DNA from: Ktedonobacteraceae bacterium
GTDB lineage: Bacteria; Chloroflexota; Ktedonobacteria; Ktedonobacterales; Ktedonobacteraceae
Reading direction: 5' to 3'
DNA: 49,670 bases
Assembly: GCA_035546055.1 (NCBI GenBank)
Contig: DASZXF010000890.1
Coordinates: forward strand, 1 to 49,670
Shown: in pieces, positions 1 to 49,670 of the stretch
Layout: each line of letters begins with the position of its first letter
Position numbering within the stretch: the stretch's first letter is position 1
The notes under the pieces: generated by a model
What the model was told of the DNA's origin: nothing
The model's database searches: none
Seen by the model: only the letters and a program-made list of their open reading frames with translations
Made by a program: the position numbers and the translations under genes

Positions 1-1140
1 AGGTACGCCAGAGGTACCGACGGTCTTTGCCCAGAGAACCTGGTCAAGATAGGTCTTGCTGGCAGGATTGGCATCAATCTGGGGATAGATCACCTGAGTC
101 ACATATTGCAGTTGATCGAGAATGACGAGCAAGGCTGCCTCAAGCGCGATCCGATCCTCTCGTACTACAGCCTCCTGGGCCTGCAACATGGCATTGAGAA
201 CAGGCGTGAGCTGCATAGCAAACTCGGTTGTCACCAGATAAAAGATGCGCTCGGCCTGGTTATCCCAGGCAGGCACCAGCAGTTCCATATTGTCGAGCCG
301 GCGCGGCCCTGCGGGATCTCGCAGCTTCCAGTTATAGAAGAACAGGTCGATATAAGAGACATATGGAAGAGGTTTGCCTAAGCGGCGCGAAACCTCCTTC
401 CATGGTTCTAAAATAGCCGCAGGAAGCGCGCCCGGAGGATCTGTTTCGACATACTGATACGCATGGGCAAACACGCCCAGCAGCGTGGAGGCGCGTAACA
501 GATAGCGGTCGGGAAGCGCGTCAGGCGTGGCCTCCAGCCGGGGCATCTGCTCAAAGACCCGGCGTAGCGTCAGCGTTCTGTACAGCGCCGGCAGGTCCGC
601 CACCATTTCATCCCAGATACTATGGGATGAAGGCAGAGCCAGCAAAGGCGGTTCCACTGGCAGGAAGCCGTAGGCGGTTGAGAGAAAGCCCTCATTTTCA
701 TGTCCCTGCGCTCTATTGTACGCCTCCGCAGCCTCCACTACTTTGCGCGCAGCTATCGTCTCCTCCGTCCGGGCAGGCGCAGCTTCTCTGTTGGTAGAAG
801 CGGGGGTAAAAAGGATTGTCGCATCCGCGCCCTGATCAACATAGGACCAGGAAAATTGATACGGGCCTATATTAATCAGATCGCCACTTTTGAGCGCGAC
901 CCGTTGAATACGCTCACCATTGACCATAGTTCCATTCGCGCTGTTCAGATCGCGTAAAATAAGGTGGTAATCTTCCAGTTCCAGCCGCGCGTGTTGCCGC
1001 GAAATAGCTCTGTCCTGAATGACAATTGTGCTGAGCTCGGTACTCCGACCTATCGTAATCGGTAGATCGCAGATATACTCCACAAGAGAACCGGAACGTT
1101 GATTTTTACAGACTAATCGCACCTGTACCGCTGATGACAT
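1..1140 (-). CDS. FHA domain / indoleamine 2,3-dioxygenase (IDO)-like fusion protein, partial (C-terminus beyond window edge; 380 codons visible)
   Basis: Own translation from ATG at 1140 (GGGAGG 9 nt upstream). The N-terminus MSSAVQVRLVCKN..ITIGRS..ISRQHARLE..LRDLNSANGTMVNGERI is an FHA signature. From about aa 150 it is collinear with the IDO family (GFLP..W..LPALY..LR..; PYVSYIDLFFYNWKLRDPAGPRRLDNMELLV compared with human IDO1 [31 protein letters not shown]). It is absent from the ORF track because there is no stop codon in the window. Confidence 0.8.
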   Translation of the reverse strand, partial: MSSAVQVRLVCKNQRSGSLVEYICDLPITIGRSTELSTIVIQDRAISRQHARLELEDYHLILRDLNSANGTMVNGERIQRVALKSGDLINIGPYQFSWSYVDQGADATILFTPASTNREAAPARTEETIAARKVVEAAEAYNRAQGHENEGFLSTAYGFLPVEPPLLALPSSHSIWDEMVADLPALYRTLTLRRVFEQMPRLEATPDALPDRYLLRASTLLGVFAHAYQYVETDPPGALPAAILEPWKEVSRRLGKPLPYVSYIDLFFYNWKLRDPAGPRRLDNMELLVPAWDNQAERIFYLVTTEFAMQLTPVLNAMLQAQEAVVREDRIALEAALLVILDQLQYVTQVIYPQIDANPASKTYLDQVLWAKTVGTSGVP

Positions 1141-1160
1141 GCCTTTGCGCCTCCCGCGTC

Positions 1161-1604
1161 TCACGCATAATAGATCACAGCCCGGCAAACATCGGCGCGC
1201 GAAACCGTCCCCATCAGCTTGCCATCATCCACCACAGGCAGGCGCCGAATTTGTTTTTCTACCATGACAACAACAGCCTGAGCTATGTCATCTGTTGTCT
1301 TCACAGTGATGGCATTACGAATAATGTAAGGATCAATAGGGCGATTCGCGAGATCACGCCCTTTCTGGACCAGAAAGGAGAAAGCATCATTGAGGGTTCC
1401 ACCTGCCCTCAGCACTTCATCGAAATCAGGCAGGATAGCGCGGACCAGATCCCCTTCGGAGAGCACCCCGATAAACACATTATCAAGGTCGATCACCATC
1501 AGGTCACTTATCTCAGAAAGACTGATAATCTCGGCTGCCCTGCGCATATCCGCCCCTGTGCGGATATAGGCAGGATGAATAGCCATAATATCCCGGATCA
1601 GCAT
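1161..1604 (-). CDS. CBS-pair domain protein
   Basis: 147-aa ORF with two CBS-type repeats (..ISDLMVIDLDNVFIGVLSEGDLVRAIL.. and ..RRLPVVDDGKLMGTVSRADVCRAV..). It lies 20 nt upstream of, and co-directional with, the FHA-IDO gene. Confidence 0.8.
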   Translation of the reverse strand: MLIRDIMAIHPAYIRTGADMRRAAEIISLSEISDLMVIDLDNVFIGVLSEGDLVRAILPDFDEVLRAGGTLNDAFSFLVQKGRDLANRPIDPYIIRNAITVKTTDDIAQAVVVMVEKQIRRLPVVDDGKLMGTVSRADVCRAVIYYA

Positions 1605-1853
1605 AAGACCTCTCTCTGGCGAATAAATTACCTCGAAGACACCATGTAAAGACCTCCCAGGAAAGGAGTCATTTCCTGAATGAAACGATGGAGAAACGCA
1701 TTTTTATGAGTTCAATATCGAAAAGAGTGTACCGGCACCAATAAGCGAAGAGACCCGGTGTCCCCACGCGCTCAGCCTCTACAATACGTGATGAAACCTG
1801 TTAGCGAACTGCGCAGAACAGAGTGAGCACCCCTGACAGGCGGACTCGACCAC

Positions 1854-1882
1854 TCGACAAGTAATCCGCGAATGTCTATAAT
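1854..1882 (+). promoter_or_regulatory. Sigma70-like promoter for arginase (TCGACA-N17-TATAAT)
   Basis: -35 TCGACA at 1854..1859, 17-nt spacer, -10 TATAAT at 1877..1882, about 45 nt upstream of ATG 1932. Confidence 0.55.
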
Positions 1883-1931
1883 AGAACCAGGATTAGAAGA
1901 CTGTTCAATGAGGAGCAGAAGAGGTTTTACT

Positions 1932-2971: not shown

Positions 2972-3038
2972 ACTAGAAAGAAAATACATAAGGTAGTATA
3001 ATCTTTTCACCTTCATAGTGTTGTTGAGAAGAGGATTT

Positions 3039-4559
3039 ATGACACAGACAGATCATCGCACGAAGGAGCAGAGGTTGGCAGCGGAGGGGAAAAAACCACG
3101 CGTGCGCTTCGCTCCTAGCCCGACCGGTTTGATGCACATCGGCGGCTATCGCACAGCCCTGTTCGACTGGCTGTTTGCCCGCCACACCGGCGGCTCTTTT
3201 GTCCTGAGAATTGAAGATACCGATACGCTGCGCACGGAAAAAGGCGCGGTTGAGTTTTTGTTGGAAGGTCTGCAATGGCTGGGGCTGGATATCGATGAAG
3301 GTCCGCAGGTGGGCGGCCCCTATGGTCCCTATTATCAGACCAACCGCAGGGCGCTCTACATGCAATACGCCAACCAGTTGATCGAGTCCGGGCACGCCTA
3401 CCGCTGCTATTGTACGCCTGAGCGCCTGGATGCTATGCGCAAGGAGCAGCAGGCACAAAAGCTGCCGCCGCGCTATGACCATCGCTGCCGCTATCTGACG
3501 CCGGAGCAGCGCGCGGCCAACGAGGCCGAGGGTCAGCGGTGGACGGTGCGCTTCGCCATGCCGCTGGAAGGCGAGACGGTGGTTCACGATGAATTGCGCG
3601 GCGATATGGTCTGGCAGAATACCAATATTGACGACGCGATTATTCTCAAGGCCAATGGTCTACCAACCTACCACCTGGCTCACGTGGTCGATGATCACCT
3701 GATGAATATCACCCACCTGATCCGCGCCGAGGAGTGGATCTCCAGCGCGCCCCTGCACGTCCAGATCTGGCGCGCCCTGGGCTGGGAGATGCCGCTGCTC
3801 TACCACGCCCCGGATGTCCTGGGAAAAGATAAGCGCAAGCTCAGCAAGCGCCACGGCGCTCCGAGCTGGAAAGAACTGCAACAGCAGGGCTTTCTGCCGG
3901 AAGCGGTGGTCAATTTCCTGGCGCTGATTGGCTGGTCCTATGATGACAAAACCGAGCTGTTTTCCCGCGAAGAACTGATCGAGGCCTTTTCGCTGGAACG
4001 TGTCAGCGTCTCCGGCGCGATCTATGACGCGGAGAAGCTGGCCTGGATGAATGGCGTCTACATTCGCAAGCTCTCCATTGAGGAGATGACGCGGCGTGCC
4101 CTGCCCTACATGGAACGGCCAGCGGCGGAGGGCGGTCTGCCGGATCAGATTCAGCGTCCGCTCGATCTCGCGTACACACAGCGCGTGCTGAGTCTTGAAC
4201 AGGAGCGTCTGCGCACATTGGGCGAGGCCTCTCATGCCGTTTCGTTCTTCTACACCGAGGATTGGGAATACGAGACGCCCCTGATTCAGAAAGGTATGGA
4301 CGCGGAAGGCACAAAAAATGCCCTGCTGCGGGCGCGCGATCTCCTGCAGAACAGCGCGGAATGGGAACAAAACGCGCTTGAAGGGCAGTTGCGCGCGCTC
4401 ATGGAGGAACTGGGTTTGAAACCCGGACAATTCCTCGGCGCGCTACGCGTGGCTGTCAGCGGACGTAAGGCGACCCCGCCGCTGTTCTCGATGCTTGAGG
4501 TACTGGGTCGCGCTCGCACCCTGGCCCGCATCGAGCGCGCCCTCACCAGCCTGGCCTGA
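3039..4559 (+). CDS. gltX: Glutamate--tRNA ligase
   Basis: Class I aaRS motifs: HIGH as PSPTGLMHIGGYRTAL, KMSKS as KLSKRHG, plus RIEDTD. Length fits GluRS. ATG 3039 is preferred over the track's GTG 3018 because GAGAAGAGGA lies just upstream. Confidence 0.93.
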   Translation: MTQTDHRTKEQRLAAEGKKPRVRFAPSPTGLMHIGGYRTALFDWLFARHTGGSFVLRIEDTDTLRTEKGAVEFLLEGLQWLGLDIDEGPQVGGPYGPYYQTNRRALYMQYANQLIESGHAYRCYCTPERLDAMRKEQQAQKLPPRYDHRCRYLTPEQRAANEAEGQRWTVRFAMPLEGETVVHDELRGDMVWQNTNIDDAIILKANGLPTYHLAHVVDDHLMNITHLIRAEEWISSAPLHVQIWRALGWEMPLLYHAPDVLGKDKRKLSKRHGAPSWKELQQQGFLPEAVVNFLALIGWSYDDKTELFSREELIEAFSLERVSVSGAIYDAEKLAWMNGVYIRKLSIEEMTRRALPYMERPAAEGGLPDQIQRPLDLAYTQRVLSLEQERLRTLGEASHAVSFFYTEDWEYETPLIQKGMDAEGTKNALLRARDLLQNSAEWEQNALEGQLRALMEELGLKPGQFLGALRVAVSGRKATPPLFSMLEVLGRARTLARIERALTSLA

Positions 4560-4571
4560 GCAGTACAATTG

Positions 4572-4640
4572 GAGAGACAGGGCGCACTGGCAGCCCCTCT
4601 GCTCTGTGCCCTGTCTCTTCTTTTCGTCCCTCTTTTTTGT
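4572..4640 (+). terminator. Rho-independent terminator after gltX
   Basis: 11-bp perfect stem AGAGACAGGGC (4573..4583) / GCCCTGTCTCT (4608..4618), followed by the T-rich tail TCTTTTCGTCCCTCTTTTTTG. Confidence 0.65.
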
Positions 4641-4765
4641 CGAAGCAGCAAGCATCAAACAGACTTGCAAAAAAGAACAACCTGAGTCATAGTATAAATA
4701 AACAAATAATCTCTGACATATAAAAACAGATCCTTTGTAGCAGGAAGCAGGAAACGAAAAACGCT

Positions 4766-5452
4766 ATGGCGCAACGAGATTACATTGTACGCATGTTTGA
4801 AGAGATGAGCCGGGTTATCGCCCAGATCGTCTATCACCGGGAAATGAAAGATTATCAGGCATCCCACGAGTTGATTGATGAGCAACTCAAGCAAACTGTG
4901 GGCATGGGCAGTGGCTTTCTCTTTTCCCTTTCCGATGAAACCCTGCTTTCAATGCTCACTACTCTTGGCTCCCTGAATGCGGAAAAATGCTGGCTTGTGG
5001 CTCTCCTGCTCAAGGCCGAGGGCGAGATCTACGCCGACGAACAGGATGAGAACATGAGCTATTATAGCTATCTCAAGGCCTGCAACCTCTTCCTGGAAGC
5101 GCTCTATGACCAGAATGAGCACCGCGACATCGAGCGGATCGCGGAAATCGAAGAGATCCTGCCTCACCTGGAAGAGTACGAACTGCCGCTGAGAACCAGG
5201 CAATTACTGTTCTGGTACTTTGAATATACCGGGCGCTACGGCAAAGCGGAGGATATGCTTTTTGATATACTGGAAACAGAACCCGATGAAGCCCTGGAAG
5301 GGATCGAAGGCATTGAGAGTATGGATGAGATACGCGCGAAAGGTGAGGCCTTCTATGCCCGCCTGTTGAGCAAAAATGACACAGCCTTAGAAAGCGGCAA
5401 TTTTTCGCGCGCCGAGATCAAGGAAGGCCTGATGCGTCTCTCACACCTGTAG
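4766..5452 (+). CDS. Hypothetical protein (acidic, helical-looking)
   Basis: 228-aa ORF with an ATG start and good coding appearance. I cannot name any motif with confidence. It follows the gltX terminator and precedes the CPBP gene by 20 nt. Confidence 0.6.
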   Translation: MAQRDYIVRMFEEMSRVIAQIVYHREMKDYQASHELIDEQLKQTVGMGSGFLFSLSDETLLSMLTTLGSLNAEKCWLVALLLKAEGEIYADEQDENMSYYSYLKACNLFLEALYDQNEHRDIERIAEIEEILPHLEEYELPLRTRQLLFWYFEYTGRYGKAEDMLFDILETEPDEALEGIEGIESMDEIRAKGEAFYARLLSKNDTALESGNFSRAEIKEGLMRLSHL

Positions 5453-5472
5453 ACAGAGACAGAGGTATCACT

Positions 5473-6102
5473 GTGTCAAATGGAAAATCCCCTCAGCTCG
5501 CTCGTTCAACTGTCGCCACGACCTGGCGCTGGCTCTGGCCTGATGTCCTGATGCGCATTTTGCCGCTGACTGCGGTGCCTTTTATCTATGTGCTTGTTCT
5601 GCATCTCCCGCTTTCGTTCCTGGGACTGACCTGGCAAAACTGGCCAACTCAACTGCTCCTGGGCCTGCTCATCGGCATCGGCATGGCGATCTTCGCGACT
5701 ACCTACCGTATCCTGGTGGTTGGCCCCTGGTTTCGCCGCCCGACCCTCGGCGATCATTTCTTGCAGGGCTTTTTTTATCTGTTCATCAACGGGCCTGTTG
5801 AAGAGTTTTTCTTTCGCGGCTTTCTCCTGGCGGCTGTTGCCCAATGGACCGGCTGGATTGGCTGGGGCTGGCTGGTCAGCACAGCAGTTTACACTCTCTA
5901 TCACCGCCTGGGCAAATGGAACTGGCGCAGCGTGGCCGGGGTAGGTCTGGCCGGCCTTGTCTTCAGCACGCTCTACATTCTCCCCGCTCAGCCCTGGTCG
6001 CTCCTGGCGGTCGTCATCGTGCATGGATTTACAACCTGGGGTTTTCTGAGCCTGGGGGATGAGGTCATGTACCAGCGCTGGAAAAAACGCCAATCTCAAT
6101 AG
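5473..6102 (+). CDS. CPBP family intramembrane metalloprotease (CAAX/Abi type)
   Basis: Multi-TM protein with VEEFFFRGFLL (the EExxxR motif) and distal LYH.. / VIVHGFTTW histidine motifs. GTG start. Confidence 0.8.
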   Translation: MSNGKSPQLARSTVATTWRWLWPDVLMRILPLTAVPFIYVLVLHLPLSFLGLTWQNWPTQLLLGLLIGIGMAIFATTYRILVVGPWFRRPTLGDHFLQGFFYLFINGPVEEFFFRGFLLAAVAQWTGWIGWGWLVSTAVYTLYHRLGKWNWRSVAGVGLAGLVFSTLYILPAQPWSLLAVVIVHGFTTWGFLSLGDEVMYQRWKKRQSQ

Positions 6103-6136
6103 AGCGGTAAAAAACAGAAAAAACGTCCAGTAAAGC

Positions 6137-6171
6137 GCGCCAGGCCGACATTGAAGCCCGGCGCCGTTTTT
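6137..6171. terminator. Bidirectional hairpin terminator between the convergent CPBP and small membrane protein genes
   Basis: GCGCCAGGC-cgacattgaa-GCCCGGCGC (one mismatch) followed by CGTTTTTA. An A-rich tract on the other side allows use from both strands. Confidence 0.5.
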
Positions 6172-6215
6172 ATGGACGAGCCAGAAAGAAGCGGGTTGTT
6201 TTTTGACGCCACCCT

Positions 6216-6416
6216 CTATTCAGCAGGCTTTTTGGCATTCCCCATAGCAAAGCCCAGCACCAGGCCCAGTACAAGCCCGATCAATCCGCCGATAAAAACA
6301 TTGCCCAGGGCAACGCCCAGCGCGCTGCCAGCGCCAATGCCCACCGCGATCCCCGCCGCCAGGCTGCCCCCGAAGCGGCGCCCTTTGTTCTCTGTCACCA
6401 GTTCTTTCTCATCCAT
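6216..6416 (-). CDS. Small glycine-zipper membrane protein
   Basis: 66 aa with GxxxG-rich hydrophobic segments (GIAVGIGAGSALGVALG..GGLIGLVLGLVLG). AAAGGGG Shine-Dalgarno site and a TGCTATAAT box lie upstream. Confidence 0.55.
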   Translation of the reverse strand: MDEKELVTENKGRRFGGSLAAGIAVGIGAGSALGVALGNVFIGGLIGLVLGLVLGFAMGNAKKPAE

Positions 6417-6486
6417 AGCAAGACCCCTTTATAACGTTTGTGTGCTTCACCAGAGAGATAGCTGCCTTTCTCTACCAAACCTCAGC

Positions 6487-6495
6487 ATTATAGCA
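6487..6495 (-). promoter_or_regulatory. Extended -10 box (TGCTATAAT) for the small membrane protein gene
   Basis: The reverse complement of ATTATAGCA is TGCTATAAT, about 70 nt upstream of the 6416 start. Confidence 0.4.
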
Positions 6496-6526
6496 CAAGA
6501 GCCATCCTCTCCATGATTACGTCCTA

Positions 6527-6535
6527 TGCTATAAT
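6527..6535 (+). promoter_or_regulatory. Extended -10 box (TGCTATAAT) for the Uma2 gene
   Basis: TGCTATAAT lies about 55 nt upstream of ATG 6591. GGAGA Shine-Dalgarno site before the start. Confidence 0.4.
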
Positions 6536-6590
6536 AGAGCACAAAGTACACTGCTGGCAAACGAAACATTGACAAGCCAAGGAGATACGC

Positions 6591-7187
6591 ATGGCATTAG
6601 AGCATAAGCAAACGATGACGGTCGAAGACTATTTTCACCTGGAAGAAAACGACCCCTATACGCGCTATGAATACATTGACGGCCATGTGTACGCTATGGC
6701 TGGCGGCAGTGCCGACCATGATACCGTCAAAAGCACGTTGCAAAATCTTCTCTGGAATGCGCTACGCCAGAGCGGTTGCCGGGTTTACAGTTCGGATATG
6801 AAAGTCTACATCTCCGCAACCCGCTACTTTCATCCAGATGTGACAGTGACCTGTAACCCGGCAGACCGGGGAAAGATTCAGGCTATCCAATCCCCTCGTC
6901 TGGTTGTTGAAGTGCTTTCTCCCAGCACAGAACTGACCGACCGCACCTGGAAATTACAAAATTATCGCGCTCATCCCACCATTGAAGAATATGTGCTCGC
7001 CGATTCTCGCTCATGCAAAGTCGAAACCTACCACAAAAAAAATGGCCTGTGGATCTATGATGCCTTCGAGAATGACGATATGGTCAGGCTTCATAGCCTG
7101 AATCTGCATCTCAAGCTGGCGGACATTTATGCCGATGTAGAATTTACAGATCAATCTACAGATTTTCCACCCTCATTTCGCCAGTAG
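6591..7187 (+). CDS. Uma2 family (DUF820) PD-(D/E)xK endonuclease
   Basis: Family pattern YEYIDGHVYAMAG ... HPDVTV ... PRLVVEVLSPST..D..K...Y....IEEYVL. Confidence 0.8.
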   Translation: MALEHKQTMTVEDYFHLEENDPYTRYEYIDGHVYAMAGGSADHDTVKSTLQNLLWNALRQSGCRVYSSDMKVYISATRYFHPDVTVTCNPADRGKIQAIQSPRLVVEVLSPSTELTDRTWKLQNYRAHPTIEEYVLADSRSCKVETYHKKNGLWIYDAFENDDMVRLHSLNLHLKLADIYADVEFTDQSTDFPPSFRQ

Positions 7188-12933: not shown

Positions 12934-13116
12934 GTGACACAAGTCAAAATTGGCGAAAATGAGACGTTTGAGACAGCACTGCGGCGCTTCAGCCGCAAGA
13001 TTCAACAAGAGGGCGTTCTCGCGGAGGCTCGCCGGCGCGAACACTATGAGAAGCCGAGCGTGAAACGCAAACGCAAAGAAGCCGCCAAACGGCGCAAAAT
13101 GGCACGCAAGGGCTAA
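12934..13116 (+). CDS. rpsU: 30S ribosomal protein bS21
   Basis: 60-aa basic protein with ..[10 protein letters not shown]...[16 protein letters not shown]... GTG start with an AGGGGGG Shine-Dalgarno site. Confidence 0.92.
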
Positions 13117-13131: not shown

Positions 13132-13184
13132 GGCTCGCCTCTGCCCAGATCATGCATTGCATGGGTACGATGCGAGCCTTTTTT
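13132..13184 (+). terminator. Possible weak terminator/attenuator between rpsU and ybeY
   Basis: GGCTCGC (13132..13138) / GCGAGCC (13172..13178) followed by TTTTTT. The loop is large (33 nt), so this call is weak. Confidence 0.3.
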
Positions 13185-13207
13185 ATGGTCAACAAAGCGG
13201 GGGCAAT

Positions 13208-13819
13208 ATGTTCGAGTCAGACGCAGATGCGGGCGAACCCGTCATCGAGGTCTCTATCAATACCGATAGCGCAGAAGACGACCAGGCAGCCGCCGAACTG
13301 CTGGCAACCGTCAACGTCGAGCAACTGGTCAGGCAGACGCTGCGCATCGTCCATGTGGAAGAGGCTGTGACCCTGACCCTGGTCATCAGCGGCGATAGCG
13401 AAATCCAGACCCTGAATCGGCAATACCGCCAGCAGGACAAGCCCACAGATGTGCTGTCGTTTCCCCTGCTGGATGAGCCGCTGGTCCGCGCGCCCGCCGA
13501 ACTGCTGTGGCAGGAGCCAGAGGAGGAGCAGACCGCTGAGGAGGCGGCGAATGAACTGGCCGAGGGCAGTTCTGTTCCGCTCTTTGTCACGCCTGCTGAA
13601 TTAAGCACTAACCTGGGGGACATTATGATCTCCTGGCCGACCACGCTGCGCCAGGCCAGGGAAGCAGGCCACGGCATCGCCGATGAATTGCTCTTTCTCC
13701 TCTGCCACGGTGTCCTGCATCTGGTAGGGTACGACGATCAGACCGAGGCTGGCTATCGCGAGATGGTGCGCCTGCAAAAGCAGATTCTCGGCGAAGTGCA
13801 GCAGAAAGGCTCGCTATGA
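13208..13819 (+). CDS. ybeY: rRNA maturation endoribonuclease YbeY (variant metal motif, acidic insertion)
   Basis: DKPTDVLSFP and HGVLHLVGYDD (the canonical motif is HGxLHLxGYDH). A roughly 35-aa acidic insert lies between them. ATG 13208 is preferred to the track's 13157. Confidence 0.85.
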   Translation: MFESDADAGEPVIEVSINTDSAEDDQAAAELLATVNVEQLVRQTLRIVHVEEAVTLTLVISGDSEIQTLNRQYRQQDKPTDVLSFPLLDEPLVRAPAELLWQEPEEEQTAEEAANELAEGSSVPLFVTPAELSTNLGDIMISWPTTLRQAREAGHGIADELLFLLCHGVLHLVGYDDQTEAGYREMVRLQKQILGEVQQKGSL

Positions 13820-14220: not shown

Positions 14221-14344
14221 GCGCGTGAAATAGAGCAGACATGAGTCCTCCCCACTGTTTCCGAGGCGGCCTCAGAAACAGTGGGGAGGACTCATGCATC
14301 ATTTCCCTTGGGGAGGACTGATATCTTCCTATTTCACGCGCTCA
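14218..14344. repeat. Hairpin repeat family, copy B, nested in a 16-bp outer inverted repeat; probable bidirectional terminator for dgkA/efp
   Basis: The inner stem is a perfect 22 bp: CATGAGTCCTCCCCACTGTTTC (14240..14261) / GAAACAGTGGGGAGGACTCATG (14275..14296). The outer pair is TGAGCGCGTGAAATAG (14218..14233) / CTATTTCACGCGCTCA (14329..14344). An orphan arm TTGGGGAGGACTGATAT lies at 14308..14324. Confidence 0.8.
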
Positions 14345-14898
14345 ACATACTTACCTGTACGTGTATCGATACGGATGCGGTCGCCGGGATTGACAAAGAG
14401 GGGCACATTGATTACTGCCCCGGTCTCCAGGGTCGCGGGTTTGGTGACGTTATTTGCTGTATCACCGCGCACACCTGGTTCAGCACTCTCTACAGCCAGT
14501 TCAAGGAAATTCGGCAGTTCGATGGCGATGATGGTATCCTCATGGACCAGCATCTCTACCACATCCTGCTCTTTGAGAAATTTCACTCCATCGCCCAGCA
14601 GTTCTTTCTGCACAGGCTGCTGATCAAAGGTTTCGGTATTCATAAAAACGAAGCTGTCGTCGCTATCGACATAGAGGAACTGCCAGTTCTGATGCTCTAC
14701 CCGAACTGACTCGACCTCTTCTGAGGCGTTGAAGCGCTGCTCCAGAACTCGCCCGTTTTTCACGTTTTTCAAACGCACCTGATAAAACGCGCGCCAGTTA
14801 CCAGGAGTGATATGATCTATCTTTTGAATAGAATAAAGCACATTTTTGTAACGGATCACCATGCCAGTATAAAAATCTGTGGGAGTTATCGTTGCCAC
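14329..14898 (-). CDS. efp: Elongation factor P (loop-tip Asn variant)
   Basis: Collinear with E. coli EF-P through to GDTA...KPATLETGAVINVPLFVNPGD.I.IDTRTGKYVERVK. GTG 14898 (AAGGTGG 9 nt upstream) is preferred to the track's ATG 14928. The loop reads TPGNWRAF, where the canonical sequence is KPGKGQAF. Confidence 0.88.
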   Translation of the reverse strand: MATITPTDFYTGMVIRYKNVLYSIQKIDHITPGNWRAFYQVRLKNVKNGRVLEQRFNASEEVESVRVEHQNWQFLYVDSDDSFVFMNTETFDQQPVQKELLGDGVKFLKEQDVVEMLVHEDTIIAIELPNFLELAVESAEPGVRGDTANNVTKPATLETGAVINVPLFVNPGDRIRIDTRTGKYVERVK

Positions 14899-14968
14899 GA
14901 TAGAATGCCACCTTTCTCTTACTCTCATCTATTGGTTGCCTTGCCAGGACCAGTCTTTTCGACCCCCC

Positions 14969-16094: not shown

Positions 16095-16664
16095 TCACCG
16101 TACTCTGCTCAATATCCCCGGATAATCAAGGACCAGCCCGTCTGCATCTACTGGCAGATCTCTGGTAAAGCCGCTGCTCAGACCCTCGTAGCGATATGTT
16201 CCGCTCCCCGTACTATGGCGCTCCAGACAAGTATAGCGCTGCGGCACTGGCCTGATCTCCAGGGTAGGCACGACAATATATGCGACCGCCAACTCAGCCG
16301 ACTGACCGGGAGTGAGTTCTAAGCGACGAATGGGCAGGGTATTGGTAAACGGAGTCGCGGTGAGATCCACGTCGAGGCACCCGGTCAACTCCGGGAGCGG
16401 CTGGTCAGTCGCAGCGAACCAGTGACCGGCACCATCAGTTCGTAAGCTCAATTCCTGGCCCTTCTCATCCAGCAGTCGGACCCTGCACATTCTGACTATC
16501 CAGGCGCTATCTGTCTGTACTTCATACCAGATACGAAACGGTTGTTCTCCGGCAACGCCAATCACAACCCCATCGGCGATATAACCATCTGCGCGCTGGC
16601 GCAGGCGTAGATGCTCAAGCCCGCTCCCATCAACAGGCGCCCACATGACGTTTCGTTCGTCCAT
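16095..16664 (-). CDS. Putative glycolipid-binding domain protein (DUF1089-like)
   Basis: 189 aa. The pattern DVDL.ATPFTNTLPIRRL.L..G ... Y.Y.......F...LPVDADGLVLDYPG matches my recollection of that family. The assignment is from memory, not a search. Confidence 0.55.
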   Translation of the reverse strand: MDERNVMWAPVDGSGLEHLRLRQRADGYIADGVVIGVAGEQPFRIWYEVQTDSAWIVRMCRVRLLDEKGQELSLRTDGAGHWFAATDQPLPELTGCLDVDLTATPFTNTLPIRRLELTPGQSAELAVAYIVVPTLEIRPVPQRYTCLERHSTGSGTYRYEGLSSGFTRDLPVDADGLVLDYPGILSRVR

Positions 16665-16784
16665 AAAAAAAGCTCCCCTCGTCTCAGAAAACTGGCATTA
16701 TCGCAGCCAAAAGCGCTGAAAAGGGGCTGCCAGCGAGTCAGCAGCACCCTCATCTCCTCGTTTGCTTCTTCTATGGTAAAGCAG

Positions 16785-16836
16785 AAAACGGGATCTGGCA
16801 AGCAATGAATGGAAGCTCTCTTTTTGCCAGATCCCG
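16785..16836 (-). terminator. Rho-independent terminator after the BtrH-like gene
   Basis: On the coding strand: a 13-bp perfect stem CGGGATCTGGCAA / TTGCCAGATCCCG followed by TTTT. Confidence 0.65.
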
Positions 16837-18680: not shown

Positions 18681-19643
18681 TCAAGAGAAAGAGGCCAGCT
18701 CGTCCAAAACTGCTGAGATATCCCGATAAGAGCGCTCCACCATTCCGGCATGATGCAGGCGATGCTGCTCCAGACGCGCGCCTGCCAGACACTGACCTTT
18801 ATAGATCAGCTTTCTAAAGCGCTGGCCAGGACGCTCCTCCACCAGGCCATATCCCTCCCAAAAAGCATCCACTTCTGTACCTGCGTGAAGATCCAGCAAA
18901 AACATCGTCCACTCCGACCATGGATCTCCCCAGGAACTCCGATCACAATCGAGGATCGCGGTAATCCTGGGACCATTTTCGTCACATTTGACCAGAACAT
19001 TGCCCGTCCACAGATCTCCATGAAGCAAACACGGCTGCGTCACTTCATCCAACAACGCCCGGTGATCTACAGTTATGTCAAGAATCTGGTGAATATCGGA
19101 GGCATCCAGTTCTGCCTCGGCAAGATCCTGAATGATCGTTTGCAGGTGATGCACGACCAGCAGACTCCAGCGGGAAAAAGATCCGCTGTCCAGAATACGG
19201 CCAAAACGCTCGCCCTTTACAGCATGGATACTACGGGTAATACTACCAAGCTGGCGCCAGAGTTGTCTTTGCTCGTGCGCACTCAGGCTATCCGCCACCG
19301 CGCTCCATGATTCTCCTTCCATGTATGCCTGGAAGAGATAATCGCGCTCAAGAAGCTGGTGAGTGAAATCAGCCATGAGAACGTGTGGCACCAGAGGAGC
19401 AATTGAGGCAAAAAAGGGCAGGCTAGCGTACTCGTTGCGCATCAGGTTTCGCTCGCTGCGCAACTGGCGGGCAACCTGGGGACCGACGCGCAAAATAACC
19501 GGCGGCATCTCATCAATATGCACCAGATATGTATTATTGTAGAGTCCTCCGTCCAACTCTTTCACCAGTACAACCGCGCGCTCCTCGCCAAACGCTCGCC
19601 GGCACATCGCCAGCAAGTGCTCAGCGGCAAGTGGTTGCTGCAA
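18681..19643 (-). CDS. Aminoglycoside/choline-kinase-type phosphotransferase (APH family)
   Basis: Brenner motif LLHGDLWTGNVLV and metal-binding ILDCDRSSWGDP. The TTG start is uncertain because no clear Shine-Dalgarno site is present. Confidence 0.75.
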   Translation of the reverse strand: MQQPLAAEHLLAMCRRAFGEERAVVLVKELDGGLYNNTYLVHIDEMPPVILRVGPQVARQLRSERNLMRNEYASLPFFASIAPLVPHVLMADFTHQLLERDYLFQAYMEGESWSAVADSLSAHEQRQLWRQLGSITRSIHAVKGERFGRILDSGSFSRWSLLVVHHLQTIIQDLAEAELDASDIHQILDITVDHRALLDEVTQPCLLHGDLWTGNVLVKCDENGPRITAILDCDRSSWGDPWSEWTMFLLDLHAGTEVDAFWEGYGLVEERPGQRFRKLIYKGQCLAGARLEQHRLHHAGMVERSYRDISAVLDELASFS

Positions 19644-19862
19644 GGCATCGGGATCTCGTGTAATAGGAATATATTCGATAGCAAACTTTCCTTTTGTCTA
19701 TCAAAAACAGCACACACGTTCCTCAAGTATACCTGATAAAAGCGGCATACACGTATCGGAAAAATAGTAACGGCCCCGTGGGCGTTCCACACAATACTCG
19801 CCGTGACCTGAAAAAGTATCAAGCCTGTAGTTGACGCCCTGTTTTCCCAAAATGTTTTCCTC

Positions 19863-19918
19863 TTGACACATAGTTTCCCAGGAAACTATAATAATAAGGT
19901 AGTTTCCTGGGAAACTAT
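19863..19918 (+). promoter_or_regulatory. Consensus promoter (TTGACA-N18-TATAAT) overlaid by two 9-2-9 palindromic operators upstream of marR
   Basis: -35 at 19863..19868 and -10 at 19887..19892. Site 1 is ATAGTTTCC-ca-GGAAACTAT (19870..19889). Site 2 is GTAGTTTCC-tg-GGAAACTAT (19899..19918). The site centres are 29 bp apart. Confidence 0.75.
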
Positions 19919-19933
19919 ATTGGAGGAAGAGAT

Positions 19934-20401
19934 ATGAATGAGCGTTCGCCTTATCCGTTGTCGAATCTGGAGACGCATCTGGGCTACTGGCTGCGGCGCA
20001 TTTCTAACCACGTTTCCGGTACCTTTGCCAGGGCGCTGCAAGATCGGCAGTTCACGGTTGCCGAGTGGGTTGCCTTGCGCCAGCTTTACGACCACTCGGA
20101 TATCGCTTCGGCAGAATTAGCGACACGGCTGGGTATGACCAGGGGGGCCATCTCCAAGGTTCTCGATAAGCTCGAAGCCAAAGGCTTGATCGAACGCGTT
20201 ACCAGGCCGGAGGACAAACGTAGCCAGAGATTGTCCCTGACTTTGCAAGGTCAGCGCATCCTGCCAGAACTGGCGGAACTCGCGGACCACAACGACCAGT
20301 ATTTCTTTAGCTGCTTGAGTACGGCAGAACAGGAACAACTCGCGCGACTGATGCGCAAGATATCCCAGGCCCACCAATGGAACGATGTGCCGATAGACTG
20401 A
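19934..20401 (+). CDS. MarR family transcriptional regulator
   Basis: 155 aa with a winged-helix region SAELATRLGMTRGAISKVLDKLEAKGLIERV..PEDKRSQRLSLT. GGAGGA Shine-Dalgarno site. Confidence 0.88.
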   Translation: MNERSPYPLSNLETHLGYWLRRISNHVSGTFARALQDRQFTVAEWVALRQLYDHSDIASAELATRLGMTRGAISKVLDKLEAKGLIERVTRPEDKRSQRLSLTLQGQRILPELAELADHNDQYFFSCLSTAEQEQLARLMRKISQAHQWNDVPID

Positions 20402-20443
20402 GCTATGCATTGAAGGCAGAGCACTTATGAGAGGAGAACATGT

Positions 20444-20857
20444 ATGAGCAAAGCGATAGAACATCTCCAGTCCGCCCAGCAGCGGGCAATGGCTGGCCGG
20501 CCCAAAGTAGGGGGCTTTCCCTATCTGGCTGAAACTTTGCGACAGGCGGGAGTCACGCGCAATTTCTGGTATTTGCCTTCCTGCCAGAGCCTCTATGTGA
20601 CGGAGGATGGCCCGGTTATGATCCTGGGAGAACCACTGGCTTCCGGCTCAGTCGATGTGCCGCCGTTCAATCGGGATGCCCTGATTACCGCGCTGCGTAT
20701 CGACCAGGCAGGAGAAAGCACTTTCGCCGAATTCCTGGCCGCCAGTTGGAAGGCCGGAGTAGTCCGCTACGAAGTGGATTTCGCAGCACGTACCGTCAGC
20801 TACTACGGTGCTGACGGCGAGCAATACGTGGAAGCCTATCCCCTCGCCAGGATATAG
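20444..20857 (+). CDS. DUF1398 family protein
   Basis: 137 aa. FPYLAETLRQAGV and the C-terminal YEVDFAARTVSYYGADGEQYVE fit the DUF1398 pattern as I recall it. It is co-transcribed with marR across a 42-nt gap. Confidence 0.6.
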   Translation: MSKAIEHLQSAQQRAMAGRPKVGGFPYLAETLRQAGVTRNFWYLPSCQSLYVTEDGPVMILGEPLASGSVDVPPFNRDALITALRIDQAGESTFAEFLAASWKAGVVRYEVDFAARTVSYYGADGEQYVEAYPLARI

Positions 20858-20870
20858 CCCCCTTTCTATA

Positions 20871-20933
20871 CATGAGTCCTCCCCACTTTTTCTGAGGCGG
20901 CCCCAGGCGCTGGAAAAAGTGGGGAGGACTGAT
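20871..20933. repeat. Hairpin repeat family, copy C
   Basis: 17-bp perfect stem AGTCCTCCCCACTTTTT (20875..20891) / AAAAAGTGGGGAGGACT (20914..20930). The loop is CTGAGGCGGCCCCAGGCGCTGG. It starts 14 nt after the DUF1398 stop. Confidence 0.8.
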
Positions 20934-20953
20934 ATAAGCGCCCTGGCAAAATC

Positions 20954-28737: not shown

Positions 28738-28800
28738 ATCAGTCCTCCCCACTTTTTCCAGCGCCTGGGGCCGCCTCAGAAAAAGTGGGGAGGACTCATG
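28738..28800. repeat. Hairpin repeat family, copy C (mirror)
   Basis: Mirror of 20871..20933, checked by eye. Confidence 0.8.
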
Positions 28801-28813
28801 TATAGAAAGGGGG

Positions 28814-29227: not shown

Positions 29228-29269
29228 ACATGTTCTCCTCTCATAAGTGCTCTGCCTTCAATGCATAGC

Positions 29270-29737
29270 TCAGTCTATCGGCACATCGTTCCATTGGTGG
29301 GCCTGGGATATCTTGCGCATCAGTCGCGCGAGTTGTTCCTGTTCTGCCGTACTCAAGCAGCTAAAGAAATACTGGTCGTTGTGGTCCGCGAGTTCCGCCA
29401 GTTCTGGCAGGATGCGCTGACCTTGCAAAGTCAGGGACAATCTCTGGCTACGTTTGTCCTCCGGCCTGGTAACGCGTTCGATCAAGCCTTTGGCTTCGAG
29501 CTTATCGAGAACCTTGGAGATGGCCCCCCTGGTCATACCCAGCCGTGTCGCTAATTCTGCCGAAGCGATATCCGAGTGGTCGTAAAGCTGGCGCAAGGCA
29601 ACCCACTCGGCAACCGTGAACTGCCGATCTTGCAGCGCCCTGGCAAAGGTACCGGAAACGTGGTTAGAAATGCGCCGCAGCCAGTAGCCCAGATGCGTCT
29701 CCAGATTCGACAACGGATAAGGCGAACGCTCATTCAT
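29270..29737 (-). CDS. MarR family regulator (mirror copy)
   Basis: Mirror of 19934..20401(+). Identical translation. Confidence 0.88.
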   Translation of the reverse strand: MNERSPYPLSNLETHLGYWLRRISNHVSGTFARALQDRQFTVAEWVALRQLYDHSDIASAELATRLGMTRGAISKVLDKLEAKGLIERVTRPEDKRSQRLSLTLQGQRILPELAELADHNDQYFFSCLSTAEQEQLARLMRKISQAHQWNDVPID

Positions 29738-29752
29738 ATCTCTTCCTCCAAT

Positions 29753-29808
29753 ATAGTTTCCCAGGAAACTACCTTATTATTATAGTTTCCTGGGAAACTA
29801 TGTGTCAA
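29753..29808 (-). promoter_or_regulatory. marR promoter with twin operators (mirror copy)
   Basis: Mirror of 19863..19918. Confidence 0.75.
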
Positions 29809-30027
29809 GAGGAAAACATTTTGGGAAAACAGGGCGTCAACTACAGGCTTGATACTTTTTCAGGTCACGGCGAGTATTGTGTGGAACGCCCACGGGGCCG
29901 TTACTATTTTTCCGATACGTGTATGCCGCTTTTATCAGGTATACTTGAGGAACGTGTGTGCTGTTTTTGATAGACAAAAGGAAAGTTTGCTATCGAATAT
30001 ATTCCTATTACACGAGATCCCGATGCC

Positions 30028-30990
30028 TTGCAGCAACCACTTGCCGCTGAGCACTTGCTGGCGATGTGCCGGCGAGCGTTTGGCGAGGAGCGCGCGGTTG
30101 TACTGGTGAAAGAGTTGGACGGAGGACTCTACAATAATACATATCTGGTGCATATTGATGAGATGCCGCCGGTTATTTTGCGCGTCGGTCCCCAGGTTGC
30201 CCGCCAGTTGCGCAGCGAGCGAAACCTGATGCGCAACGAGTACGCTAGCCTGCCCTTTTTTGCCTCAATTGCTCCTCTGGTGCCACACGTTCTCATGGCT
30301 GATTTCACTCACCAGCTTCTTGAGCGCGATTATCTCTTCCAGGCATACATGGAAGGAGAATCATGGAGCGCGGTGGCGGATAGCCTGAGTGCGCACGAGC
30401 AAAGACAACTCTGGCGCCAGCTTGGTAGTATTACCCGTAGTATCCATGCTGTAAAGGGCGAGCGTTTTGGCCGTATTCTGGACAGCGGATCTTTTTCCCG
30501 CTGGAGTCTGCTGGTCGTGCATCACCTGCAAACGATCATTCAGGATCTTGCCGAGGCAGAACTGGATGCCTCCGATATTCACCAGATTCTTGACATAACT
30601 GTAGATCACCGGGCGTTGTTGGATGAAGTGACGCAGCCGTGTTTGCTTCATGGAGATCTGTGGACGGGCAATGTTCTGGTCAAATGTGACGAAAATGGTC
30701 CCAGGATTACCGCGATCCTCGATTGTGATCGGAGTTCCTGGGGAGATCCATGGTCGGAGTGGACGATGTTTTTGCTGGATCTTCACGCAGGTACAGAAGT
30801 GGATGCTTTTTGGGAGGGATATGGCCTGGTGGAGGAGCGTCCTGGCCAGCGCTTTAGAAAGCTGATCTATAAAGGTCAGTGTCTGGCAGGCGCGCGTCTG
30901 GAGCAGCATCGCCTGCATCATGCCGGAATGGTGGAGCGCTCTTATCGGGATATCTCAGCAGTTTTGGACGAGCTGGCCTCTTTCTCTTGA
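30028..30990 (+). CDS. APH family phosphotransferase (mirror copy)
   Basis: Mirror of 18681..19643(-). Identical translation. Confidence 0.75.
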   Translation: MQQPLAAEHLLAMCRRAFGEERAVVLVKELDGGLYNNTYLVHIDEMPPVILRVGPQVARQLRSERNLMRNEYASLPFFASIAPLVPHVLMADFTHQLLERDYLFQAYMEGESWSAVADSLSAHEQRQLWRQLGSITRSIHAVKGERFGRILDSGSFSRWSLLVVHHLQTIIQDLAEAELDASDIHQILDITVDHRALLDEVTQPCLLHGDLWTGNVLVKCDENGPRITAILDCDRSSWGDPWSEWTMFLLDLHAGTEVDAFWEGYGLVEERPGQRFRKLIYKGQCLAGARLEQHRLHHAGMVERSYRDISAVLDELASFS

Positions 30991-47739: not shown

Positions 47740-47788
47740 AGTAAAACCTCTTCTGCTCCTCATTGAACAGTCTTCTAATCCTGGTTCT

Positions 47789-47817
47789 ATTATAGACATT
47801 CGCGGATTACTTGTCGA
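47789..47817 (-). promoter_or_regulatory. Arginase promoter (mirror copy)
   Basis: Mirror of 1854..1882. Confidence 0.55.
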
Positions 47818-48066
47818 GTGGTCGAGTCCGCCTGTCAGGGGTGCTCACTCTGTTCTGCGCAGTTCGCTAACAGGTTTCATCACGTATTGTAGAGGCTGAG
47901 CGCGTGGGGACACCGGGTCTCTTCGCTTATTGGTGCCGGTACACTCTTTTCGATATTGAACTCATAAAAATGCGTTTCTCCATCGTTTCATTCAGGAAAT
48001 GACTCCTTTCCTGGGAGGTCTTTACATGGTGTCTTCGAGGTAATTTATTCGCCAGAGAGAGGTCTT

Positions 48067-48510
48067 ATGCTGATCCGGGATATTATGGCTATTCATCCTG
48101 CCTATATCCGCACAGGGGCGGATATGCGCAGGGCAGCCGAGATTATCAGTCTTTCTGAGATAAGTGACCTGATGGTGATCGACCTTGATAATGTGTTTAT
48201 CGGGGTGCTCTCCGAAGGGGATCTGGTCCGCGCTATCCTGCCTGATTTCGATGAAGTGCTGAGGGCAGGTGGAACCCTCAATGATGCTTTCTCCTTTCTG
48301 GTCCAGAAAGGGCGTGATCTCGCGAATCGCCCTATTGATCCTTACATTATTCGTAATGCCATCACTGTGAAGACAACAGATGACATAGCTCAGGCTGTTG
48401 TTGTCATGGTAGAAAAACAAATTCGGCGCCTGCCTGTGGTGGATGATGGCAAGCTGATGGGGACGGTTTCGCGCGCCGATGTTTGCCGGGCTGTGATCTA
48501 TTATGCGTGA
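48067..48510 (+). CDS. CBS-pair domain protein (mirror copy)
   Basis: Mirror of 1161..1604(-). Identical translation. Confidence 0.8.
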   Translation: MLIRDIMAIHPAYIRTGADMRRAAEIISLSEISDLMVIDLDNVFIGVLSEGDLVRAILPDFDEVLRAGGTLNDAFSFLVQKGRDLANRPIDPYIIRNAITVKTTDDIAQAVVVMVEKQIRRLPVVDDGKLMGTVSRADVCRAVIYYA

Positions 48511-48530
48511 GACGCGGGAGGCGCAAAGGC

Positions 48531-49670
48531 ATGTCATCAGCGGTACAGGTGCGATTAGTCTGTAAAAATCAACGTTCCGGTTCTCTTGTGGAGTATATCT
48601 GCGATCTACCGATTACGATAGGTCGGAGTACCGAGCTCAGCACAATTGTCATTCAGGACAGAGCTATTTCGCGGCAACACGCGCGGCTGGAACTGGAAGA
48701 TTACCACCTTATTTTACGCGATCTGAACAGCGCGAATGGAACTATGGTCAATGGTGAGCGTATTCAACGGGTCGCGCTCAAAAGTGGCGATCTGATTAAT
48801 ATAGGCCCGTATCAATTTTCCTGGTCCTATGTTGATCAGGGCGCGGATGCGACAATCCTTTTTACCCCCGCTTCTACCAACAGAGAAGCTGCGCCTGCCC
48901 GGACGGAGGAGACGATAGCTGCGCGCAAAGTAGTGGAGGCTGCGGAGGCGTACAATAGAGCGCAGGGACATGAAAATGAGGGCTTTCTCTCAACCGCCTA
49001 CGGCTTCCTGCCAGTGGAACCGCCTTTGCTGGCTCTGCCTTCATCCCATAGTATCTGGGATGAAATGGTGGCGGACCTGCCGGCGCTGTACAGAACGCTG
49101 ACGCTACGCCGGGTCTTTGAGCAGATGCCCCGGCTGGAGGCCACGCCTGACGCGCTTCCCGACCGCTATCTGTTACGCGCCTCCACGCTGCTGGGCGTGT
49201 TTGCCCATGCGTATCAGTATGTCGAAACAGATCCTCCGGGCGCGCTTCCTGCGGCTATTTTAGAACCATGGAAGGAGGTTTCGCGCCGCTTAGGCAAACC
49301 TCTTCCATATGTCTCTTATATCGACCTGTTCTTCTATAACTGGAAGCTGCGAGATCCCGCAGGGCCGCGCCGGCTCGACAATATGGAACTGCTGGTGCCT
49401 GCCTGGGATAACCAGGCCGAGCGCATCTTTTATCTGGTGACAACCGAGTTTGCTATGCAGCTCACGCCTGTTCTCAATGCCATGTTGCAGGCCCAGGAGG
49501 CTGTAGTACGAGAGGATCGGATCGCGCTTGAGGCAGCCTTGCTCGTCATTCTCGATCAACTGCAATATGTGACTCAGGTGATCTATCCCCAGATTGATGC
49601 CAATCCTGCCAGCAAGACCTATCTTGACCAGGTTCTCTGGGCAAAGACCGTCGGTACCTCTGGCGTACCT
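48531..49670 (+). CDS. FHA / IDO-like fusion protein, partial (mirror copy; runs off the window end)
   Basis: Mirror of 1..1140(-). This is the copy I translated by hand from ATG 48531. It stays open to the last base of the window. Confidence 0.8.
   Translation, partial: MSSAVQVRLVCKNQRSGSLVEYICDLPITIGRSTELSTIVIQDRAISRQHARLELEDYHLILRDLNSANGTMVNGERIQRVALKSGDLINIGPYQFSWSYVDQGADATILFTPASTNREAAPARTEETIAARKVVEAAEAYNRAQGHENEGFLSTAYGFLPVEPPLLALPSSHSIWDEMVADLPALYRTLTLRRVFEQMPRLEATPDALPDRYLLRASTLLGVFAHAYQYVETDPPGALPAAILEPWKEVSRRLGKPLPYVSYIDLFFYNWKLRDPAGPRRLDNMELLVPAWDNQAERIFYLVTTEFAMQLTPVLNAMLQAQEAVVREDRIALEAALLVILDQLQYVTQVIYPQIDANPASKTYLDQVLWAKTVGTSGVP

Follow-up and report, generated by a model that had tools for sequence, protein, structure and literature searches.

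The 49,670-nt contig analysed here, which in its full length is the window referred to below, is an exact reverse-complement palindrome, and its mirror half is almost surely an artefact of some kind. We suggest that the contig is probably a mirror mis-assembly, in which the walk of an assembler through a de Bruijn graph turned round at a real short palindrome. There is almost certainly nothing biologically unusual in it, the only real element being an ordinary 46-bp intergenic hairpin.

Results

The palindromic contig

The full comparison of the window with its own reverse complement, which the initial annotation had recommended, gave 0 mismatches at all 49,670 positions. There were no N characters, and the counts of A and T, and those of G and C, were equal. 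The description of the window in that annotation as a perfect palindrome without a spacer was therefore correct, with the axis at 24835/24836, where GGATTGACAGC meets GCTGTCAATCC directly. Inspection of the window sequence revealed no spacer, adapter or foreign sequence at the axis. A perfect inverted repeat of 24,835 nt is beyond the reach of chance. Because the window is self-complementary, all of its ORFs have mirror twins, as had been stated for each ORF and as is seen in the ORF list, and only 24.8 kb of the sequence is unique, again in agreement with the annotation.

In the protein cluster listing, the PIG-L protein of the window was placed on one contig of 49,670 nt, both in NCBI and in JGI/IMG. 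Since the window is the entire deposited contig, the two contig ends are also mirror images, and the palindrome, which is of even length, includes both of them. The two ends lie at the same base within a gene, and asymmetric flanks beyond the duplication are absent. The features of the window are as follows.

1 to 24,835, plus strand: unique arm, a genuine Ktedonobacteraceae chromosomal segment according to Pfam scans, DNA identity to Logan contigs and conserved gene order
1 to 1,200, minus strand: gene with an FHA-like motif, running off the contig end, with an open frame of at least 400 codons to position 1
3,018 to 4,559: gltX, identified by Pfam scan
about 12,940 to 13,116: S21-like ORF (rpsU), recognised from the sequence without a family-library scan
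13,157 to 13,819: ybeY, identified by Pfam scan
14,329 to 14,928: efp, identified by Pfam scan
23,970 to 24,791, plus strand: PIG-L/LmbE-family deacetylase gene (PF02585, E=2e-31; ORF list)
24,813 to 24,858, no strand: native perfect palindrome of 46 nt, ATTGGAGCAGATGGATTGACAGC followed without a spacer by GCTGTCAATCCATCTGCTCCAAT, with arms of 23 nt each at 24,813 to 24,835 and 24,836 to 24,858
24,859 to 49,670, no strand: mirror copy, almost surely false, being the reverse complement of 1 to 24,812; the native genome continues otherwise

Genes on the unique arm

The gene content of the arm includes an arginase, gltX, S21, ybeY, dgkA, efp, two MerR regulators, an MFS transporter, an LplA-like protein and PIG-L. 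The housekeeping genes listed in the initial annotation are thus present, namely gltX, ybeY and efp, together with rpsU in the form of the S21-like ORF. The arm was 99.1-99.5% identical in DNA to three independent Logan contigs (L152, L154 and L155) and 96% identical to a fourth (L153), and the order MerR-MFS-LplA-PIG-L was kept in relatives. For the arginase protein, which is encoded near the outer end of the arm, no exact match was on record. The FHA assignment of the outermost gene is based on a motif in its translation, without a family scan; because this gene runs off the contig end, both ends of the contig cut a coding gene. The real genes end with PIG-L, whose stop codon ends 44 nt before the axis. 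Pfam scans of the arm genes found no resolvase, integrase or phage genes.

The native palindrome

The 46-nt intergenic hairpin is the sole real palindrome in the window. Convergent genes flank it, with the stop of PIG-L 21 nt away on one side and the stop of the other gene 14 nt away on the other, and its fold as RNA has a free energy of about -36 kcal/mol. Just 3' of PIG-L, 28 of 99 relatives have a hairpin whose arms reach 16 nt or more, compared to 6 of 297 control windows, and the arms at the corresponding site in many relatives measured 16-36 nt. The core resembles the bidirectional-terminator-like hairpins between convergent genes in its position and its stable stem. Of the U-tract that follows the stem in intrinsic terminators, there is no clear example on the plus strand (GGTTATGTG) and a weak one on the minus strand (ATATTGCC). 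With the U-tract absent or weak, a terminator function is suggested solely by the position of the core, and we regard it as a putative terminator-like element.

Where independent assemblies stop

Four independent contigs assembled by Logan at k=31 from four runs (L152, L153, L154 and L155) end 6-7 nt past the axis of the window. In our simulation at k=31, a palindrome of arm length A stopped the flank unitig at +(30-A), and an endless palindrome stopped it at +15. The observed ends at +7 and +6 therefore correspond to arms of 23 and 24 nt, whereas a hairpin telomere or an endless palindrome predicts an end at +15.

The native junction and right flank

The other side of the palindrome was recovered from run DRR815522, to which L154 belongs. 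A 5.6-kb contig of this run (L171), found via a response regulator, reaches the palindrome from the opposite side; PIG-L is not the neighbour of this response regulator in the species of the window. The two contigs have 30 nt in common, which are the stem plus 7 nt and equal k-1, and their outer flanks differ. The native junction reconstructed from them consists of PIG-L, a palindrome with 23-nt arms and then a convergent GFO/IDH/MocA oxidoreductase cluster, with the gene order GFO (381 aa), AP_endonuc_2, AP_endonuc_2 and GFO. Simulated at k=31, this junction reproduced the two contig ends that had been observed. It comes from other samples of the species (99% identical) and not from the source sample of the contig.

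The match between the native junction and the window extends over 491 nt on the left side of the axis but over only 23 nt on the right, after which the two diverge. Past the palindrome, the native sequence begins GGTTATGTGCATGGCTAGAAG... and that of the window ATATTGCCTCTC... The native junction string is ...GGCAATAT-ATTGGAGCAGATGGATTGACAGCGCTGTCAATCCATCTGCTCCAAT-GGTTATGTGCATGGCTAGAAGTCC..., and in the mirror version the same palindrome is followed by ATATTGCCTCTCTATGGGTCTCTACTCGG... The native join leads from ...CTCCAAT to GGTTATGTGCATGG, and the mirror continuation more than 23 nt past the axis reads, for example, ...CTCCAATATATTGCCTCTCTATGGG.

By the de Bruijn graph alone, X-stem-rc(Y) is indistinguishable from X-stem-rc(X) plus Y-stem-rc(Y). 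We chose X-stem-rc(Y) because of parsimony and of synteny with L156, the closest relative with a long contig straight through the locus. After PIG-L, L156 has the identical gene order and orientation, with 72-91% protein identity. An inverted copy of the arm was absent from all relatives examined.

Several other candidates for the right flank were discarded. In this family the convergent neighbour is usually a C39-like peptidase, which was a wrong guess here; the candidates P0126, P0127, P0132 and P0136 belonged to different loci or species and had hairpins of their own. When the 41 nt to the left of the axis were scanned as exact DNA against metagenome contigs, there were 0 matches. Protein-guided scans of genome and metagenome contigs, in which the best PIG-L identity was 85-88% and no conspecific contig was found, served only the synteny and hairpin survey. 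On a JGI contig of 1,192 nt (sample 3300056388), which has an identical PIG-L protein and is represented by gene calls only, a minus-strand call starts 43 nt past the axis. The expected start of the downstream gene is +45 for the mirror and +38 for the native junction of DRR815522, and the call fits neither, so that we give this contig no weight.

Graph topology at the palindrome

Our simulation showed that, for k no larger than 47, the two arms of the palindrome share their k-mers as the same graph nodes, and for this reason the two flanks lead into a single stem node, which terminates in a self-loop. Such a self-loop is expected where a natural perfect palindrome of at least k+1 nt coincides with the axis, and the native 46-nt palindrome is centred on 24835/24836. 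The loop topology appeared throughout the tested k values from 21 to 47, and at k=55, which was tested next, it was resolved.

Discussion

We propose that the assembler entered the stem from the PIG-L side, rounded the loop at the palindrome and left along the reverse complement of its entry path, skipping the true right flank. The product would be the left flank, the palindrome and the reverse complement of the left flank. A contig built by such a turn-round walk would be an exact, spacer-less palindrome of even length with both ends at the same base, and positions 24,859 to 49,670 would not represent real sequence context. This route would need an assembly stage at a k not above 47, such as k=33 in metaSPAdes or k=21, 29 or 39 in MEGAHIT, or else weak coverage of the hairpin at larger k. 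If the final k was larger than 47 and there were reads spanning the palindrome, the graph ought to have been resolved, and the mis-join would presumably need either low coverage of the hairpin or carry-over from a small k.

Contigs of this kind have been reported before. In SPAdes assemblies of M. bovis isolates, 81 contigs that were exact palindromes over their whole length were judged to be assembly errors and removed (PMC9455707), and exact palindromic contigs in single-cell assemblies were likewise reported as assembly errors and removed (bioRxiv 10.1101/2023.06.06.543983). As in our contig, an exact whole-contig palindrome was combined with duplicated gene sets. The two papers give no mechanism, whereas here a natural perfect palindrome of 46 nt could be identified as the seed, and an independent run supplied the true neighbour.

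A technical artefact had already been considered most likely in the initial annotation, and the joining of another flank to the stem in run DRR815522 supports this view. Its idea of a fold-back holds as far as the artefact is concerned, but the turning point is not arbitrary: the natural 46-nt palindrome has its exact centre at the axis and is seen again in independent samples. The evidence also points away from the routes it had named, namely a missed SMRTbell adapter, nanopore template-complement read-through and a random MDA chimera. The absence of an adapter or spacer, the lack of any mismatch and the turn on a palindrome argue for a mis-traversal of the graph or, less likely, a snap-back at the level of the reads. 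Chimeras formed by MDA, missed SMRTbell adapters or nanopore template-complement reads do create a head-to-head inverted duplication without a biological basis, as seen here. However, their junctions are essentially random and occur in one library only, and a random one-off chimera was rejected because the break at this palindrome centre is shared by assemblies of four other runs. A fold-back at the palindrome itself is a separate reading, which we consider unlikely. A strand ending in the 46-nt palindrome could have snapped back and been extended during end repair, MDA or long-read strand linkage, and the chimeras would then have been assembled faithfully. The mirror half would still be an artefact, differing only in the step of its origin. 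Strong hairpins are favoured sites of snap-back priming, which yields inverted chimeras; the axis lies exactly on such a hairpin, and a fold-back would account for a mirror junction that persists at large k. On the other hand, the axis has no adapter or spacer and the arms show 0 mismatches over 24.8 kb, a perfection that a contig made of raw long fold-back reads, whether one or a few, would reach only after polishing. Moreover, the graph topology is by itself already sufficient for the contig, and the unitig ends in the four Logan assemblies match the native palindrome with no need for mirror reads.

The readings in which the mirror junction is physical DNA, and not a product of software, are far less probable than either of these. 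Starting from a break next to the 46-nt palindrome, intrastrand snap-back and then replication could have produced a true head-to-head structure of 2 x 24.8 kb or more in the sampled population, which we regard as very improbable. It is well established that short inverted repeats seed large palindromes in other organisms, and the contig itself would look the same as the artefact because a de Bruijn assembler collapses both arms to the same nodes. Against this, the junction is an ordinary one with arms of 23 nt in the near-identical genomes of another run, the assemblies of three further runs break in the same pattern, and the convergent neighbour in relatives is ordinary. The single-copy essential genes on the arms and the symmetrical contig ends, cut inside a gene, are further arguments against a duplication, and a perfect palindrome of such size without a spacer is expected to be unstable. 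We see equally little chance that part of the source community really carried such a giant duplication, or a linear fragment capped by a hairpin, formed by the same break, snap-back and replication. The least credible reading of all, with a negligible probability in our judgment, is a hairpin telomere, either as the covalently closed end of a linear replicon or as a replicated junction prior to the action of a resolvase, read around its tip. Hairpin telomeres are resolved by enzymes of the ResT/TelK/TelA/TelN type in Borrelia, in the linear chromosome of Agrobacterium and in phage N15, and a closed end or replicated junction of this kind reads as a spacer-less palindrome, like the window. Linear contigs, or a putative linear chromosome, are also listed for some Ktedonobacteria assemblies (PMC6497799). 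However, the PIG-L locus was internal to the chromosome in every large contig of the relatives tested, and in D. aurantiacus S27 (L039) and Uno16 (L027) it lies about 1.2 Mb and about 0.96 Mb, respectively, from the ends of the 'linear contigs'. The hairpin telomere, which the initial annotation had kept as a long shot, is contradicted for this species by the independent assemblies, in which the arms are 23-24 nt long, the unitigs stop at +6 or +7 and not at +15, and a distinct right flank is joined to the stem in DRR815522. Unlike in systems with telomere resolvases, a resolvase gene was not among the arm genes scanned with Pfam.

If, as is almost certain, the mirror half is an artefact, the public contig, in NCBI and IMG, holds a false duplicate of 24.8 kb with extra copies of the single-copy markers gltX, S21, ybeY and efp, and should be trimmed to positions 1 to 24,858. 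The mirror half creates a false gene adjacency, and such a contig inflates estimates of contamination and duplication and introduces spurious paralogues into pangenomes. It could also pass for a hairpin telomere or an inverted terminal repeat. The contig ends offer a general diagnostic for such cases, since an end at +(k-1-A) past the centre of a palindrome gives the true arm length A and thus tells apart palindromes that are short and natural from those that are endless, with no recourse to the reads.

Symmetry and gene content of the contig

The reverse complement of the window is the window itself at 49,670 of 49,670 positions, and the initial annotation was therefore right to call it a perfect palindrome without a spacer, as the full self-comparison gave 0 mismatches. 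A equals T and G equals C in the base counts, there is no N, and the axis reads GGATTGACAGC to the left and GCTGTCAATCC to the right of 24835/24836, without a spacer. An exact-sequence cluster look-up placed the PIG-L protein of the window on one 49,670-nt contig in both NCBI and JGI/IMG; the window is thus the complete deposited contig, and both of its ends are mirror images too. These ends interrupt a gene of the minus strand that has an FHA-like motif and whose frame, open over 400 codons or more, continues beyond position 1. They do not represent the natural termini of a small replicon.

The unique 24.8 kb (the arm, 1-24835) is ordinary chromosomal DNA of Ktedonobacteraceae (Chloroflexota). 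The top species-representative matches were Ktedonobacter and Ktedonobacteraceae MAGs, with PIG-L identities of 84-88%. No resolvase, integrase, transposase or phage genes were seen among the arm genes.

Features of the arm and the axis
Arm, group 1: arginase, gltX, CPBP protease, Uma2, ornithine cyclodeaminase, epimerase, O-antigen ligase-like, LPG-synthase-like
Arm, group 2: S21, ybeY, dgkA, efp
Arm, group 3: two MerR, APH kinase, MarR, DUF1398, MFS transporter, LplA-like, PIG-L/LmbE deacetylase
23970-24791, + strand: PIG-L, last gene, ending 44 nt short of the axis
24813-24835 and 24836-24858: native palindrome, 46 nt, perfect, 23-nt arms

Independent assemblies break at the same axis

Near-identical PIG-L proteins in the protein collection numbered three, all from Logan assemblies (public k=31 assemblies of sequencing runs), and the contigs carrying such a protein numbered four, from four different runs. 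All four end just beyond the exact axis of the window.

Contigs of the same species at the axis (contig, run, identity to the window arm, end in nt beyond the axis)
L152, SRR12170518, 99.5%, +6
L154, DRR815522, 98.2-99.6% across aligned blocks, +7
L155, SRR11658487, 99.2%, +7
L153, SRR25158471, 96%, +6

In the diverged strain L153, a matched change preserves the palindromic centre (TACAGC/GCTGTA). A random one-off chimera does not account for independent samples that all break at one and the same nucleotide, and the evidence points away from the fold-back routes named in the initial annotation.

The end positions were interpreted by simulating a k=31 bidirected de Bruijn graph with the real left flank and palindromes of varied arm length A. 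For A of at least 16, the left-flank unitig stopped at +(30-A), because the first k-mer fully within the palindrome can be entered from two sides: from the left flank, or from the right flank read as its reverse complement. An endless palindrome, such as a hairpin telomere or a true long inverted duplication, stopped at +15 through a self-loop. The observed +7 and +6 thus correspond to A = 23 and 24 with another sequence as the right flank, and do not fit an endless palindrome.

The native junction

A C39-like peptidase had been guessed from relatives as the right-hand neighbour, and the search for it failed. A response-regulator search led to L171, a contig from the same run as L154 (DRR815522). 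Both contigs end in an identical 30 nt (k-1), ATTGGAGCAGATGGATTGACAGC/GCTGTCA, which L171 enters from a wholly different flank, ...CTTCTAGCCATGCACATAACC. Two unitigs that share one palindromic stem are predicted to meet in just this way. When joined, they give the PIG-L stop, 21 nt, the perfect 46-nt palindrome, 14 nt and the stop of a convergent gene for a 381-aa GFO/IDH/MocA oxidoreductase, beyond which lie AP_endonuc_2(-), AP_endonuc_2(+) and GFO(+). The reconstruction is identical to the window for 491 nt left of the axis and for only 23 nt right of it; past the right arm it reads GGTTATGTGCAT, and the window ATATTGCCTCTC. A k-mer simulation of the reconstruction yielded both observed contig ends (+7, k=31).

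By itself, the graph cannot distinguish flanks X and Y joined as X-stem-rc(Y) from X-stem-rc(X) plus Y-stem-rc(Y), where rc is the reverse complement. The adjacency of PIG-L and the GFO cluster is independently corroborated by L156, the closest relative with a long contig (PIG-L 86%), because it has the same four genes 3' of PIG-L in the same order and orientation (protein identities of 84, 91, 72 and 84-85%).

A 1,192-nt contig from JGI sample 3300056388 has an identical 273-aa PIG-L and goes on for about 117 nt past the position of the axis. On it, the next gene, called on the minus strand, begins 86 nt past the PIG-L stop; the mirror copy predicts 88 nt and the DRR815522 junction has 81 nt. 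This contig agrees exactly with neither model and is given no weight; the offset may be an indel in another strain.

The PIG-L locus in relatives

The upstream order MerR-MFS-LplA-PIG-L is kept in many Ktedonobacteria, all of which run on beyond PIG-L into unrelated, mostly convergent genes; inverted arm-like sequence past PIG-L was absent from all Ktedonobacteria relatives compared at the locus. The locus is internal on their large contigs; in the two genomes that PMC6497799 gives as 'linear contigs', the contig ends are about 1.2 Mb (D. aurantiacus S27) and about 0.96 Mb (Uno16) away.

A long, nearly perfect hairpin is frequent directly 3' of the PIG-L stop. Its arms were at least 16 nt in 28 of 99 distinct relatives and at least 25 nt in 12, with a spacer of 0-1 nt in 10 of the 28; among 297 control windows drawn at random from these loci, arms of at least 16 nt occurred in only 6. 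The real element is the 46-bp intergenic hairpin between convergent genes, which is of a known kind and often present here in the family. From its position only, with no clear U-tract after the stem, it is a putative terminator.

Among public short-read contigs of related Ktedonobacteraceae, many (L160, L162, L163, L168-L170 and L158/L159) end in, or right at, an intergenic hairpin of their own that lies 3' of a PIG-L or C39-peptidase gene. Long, perfect palindromes between genes seem to fragment the family's assemblies systematically and are a potential source of mirror contigs. The last 85 nt or so of the JGI contig L164 (1110-1194), directly after its C39 peptidase region, are almost all G, a typical poly-G artefact of two-colour sequencing chemistry carried into a public assembly.

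Origin of the mirror half

The mirror half, 24859-49670, is almost certainly an artefact of some kind and not a real feature, and the artefact reading of the initial annotation holds, since the native junction in the same species has only 23-nt arms. In this species, the axis falls on a natural, perfect palindrome of 46 nt that is followed by a right flank of its own. At k of 47 or less, such a palindrome becomes a stem that loops back on itself in the de Bruijn graph; in the reconstruction, the hairpin topology was present at all tested k to 47 and gone at k=55. The window leaves the native sequence precisely where the natural right arm ends. We suggest that the assembler came in from the PIG-L side, went through the loop at the stem and came out again on its own path, now read as the reverse complement, instead of on the true right flank. 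Such an exit would make the contig exact, spacer-less and of even length, with the same end base on both sides, and all four properties are seen in the window. Like the window, the 81 contigs discarded as assembly errors from SPAdes isolate assemblies (PMC9455707) and those likewise discarded from single-cell assemblies (bioRxiv 10.1101/2023.06.06.543983) were exactly palindromic over their whole length. The contig would look no different if single strands had snapped back at the palindrome in library preparation, which is the less likely route and would be an artefact all the same.

A real palindrome or hairpin end is very improbable. The hairpin telomere, a long shot in the initial annotation, is contradicted by contig ends at +6/+7, by the second flank, by a locus that lies inside the contigs of relatives and by an arm without a resolvase. 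If the source sample truly carried a giant inverted duplication, the contig would be mirror-symmetric as well, but this reading is disfavoured: conspecific genomes have an ordinary junction, the arms carry essential single-copy genes, and the ends are perfectly symmetric and lie inside a gene.

The value of this result is in curation, in that the real extent of the deposited contig is 1-24858 and its marker genes are falsely duplicated. The end-position diagnostic is simple and of use as well.

Other features of the arm

Strains vary between the two MerR genes, at 18699-21124 (mirror 28547-30972). The window has APH kinase, MarR and DUF1398 in about 2.4 kb there, L154 next to nothing (3660-3909), and L153 a 149-aa ORF and a 699-aa LRV/HEAT-repeat gene (4080-7121). 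The right boundary, 21125/21126, is common to L153 and L154 and is also where L152 starts. L154 also lacks 16144-16818 of the window.

A 57-nt near-perfect palindrome lies between dgkA and efp (14240-14296; 28-nt arms, 1 mismatch, 1-nt spacer). The mismatch and the spacer keep it from collapsing in a k=31 graph, and contigs run through it. With a related copy at the edge of the variable segment (20868-20936, about 92% over 37 nt), it looks like a small repeated palindromic element. Just 5' of the MarR gene (19934-20401) is a perfect 19-nt inverted repeat (19870-19888 and 19900-19918, 11-nt gap), which overlaps a 12/12 sigma-70-like promoter match (19863-19892) and is a putative operator.
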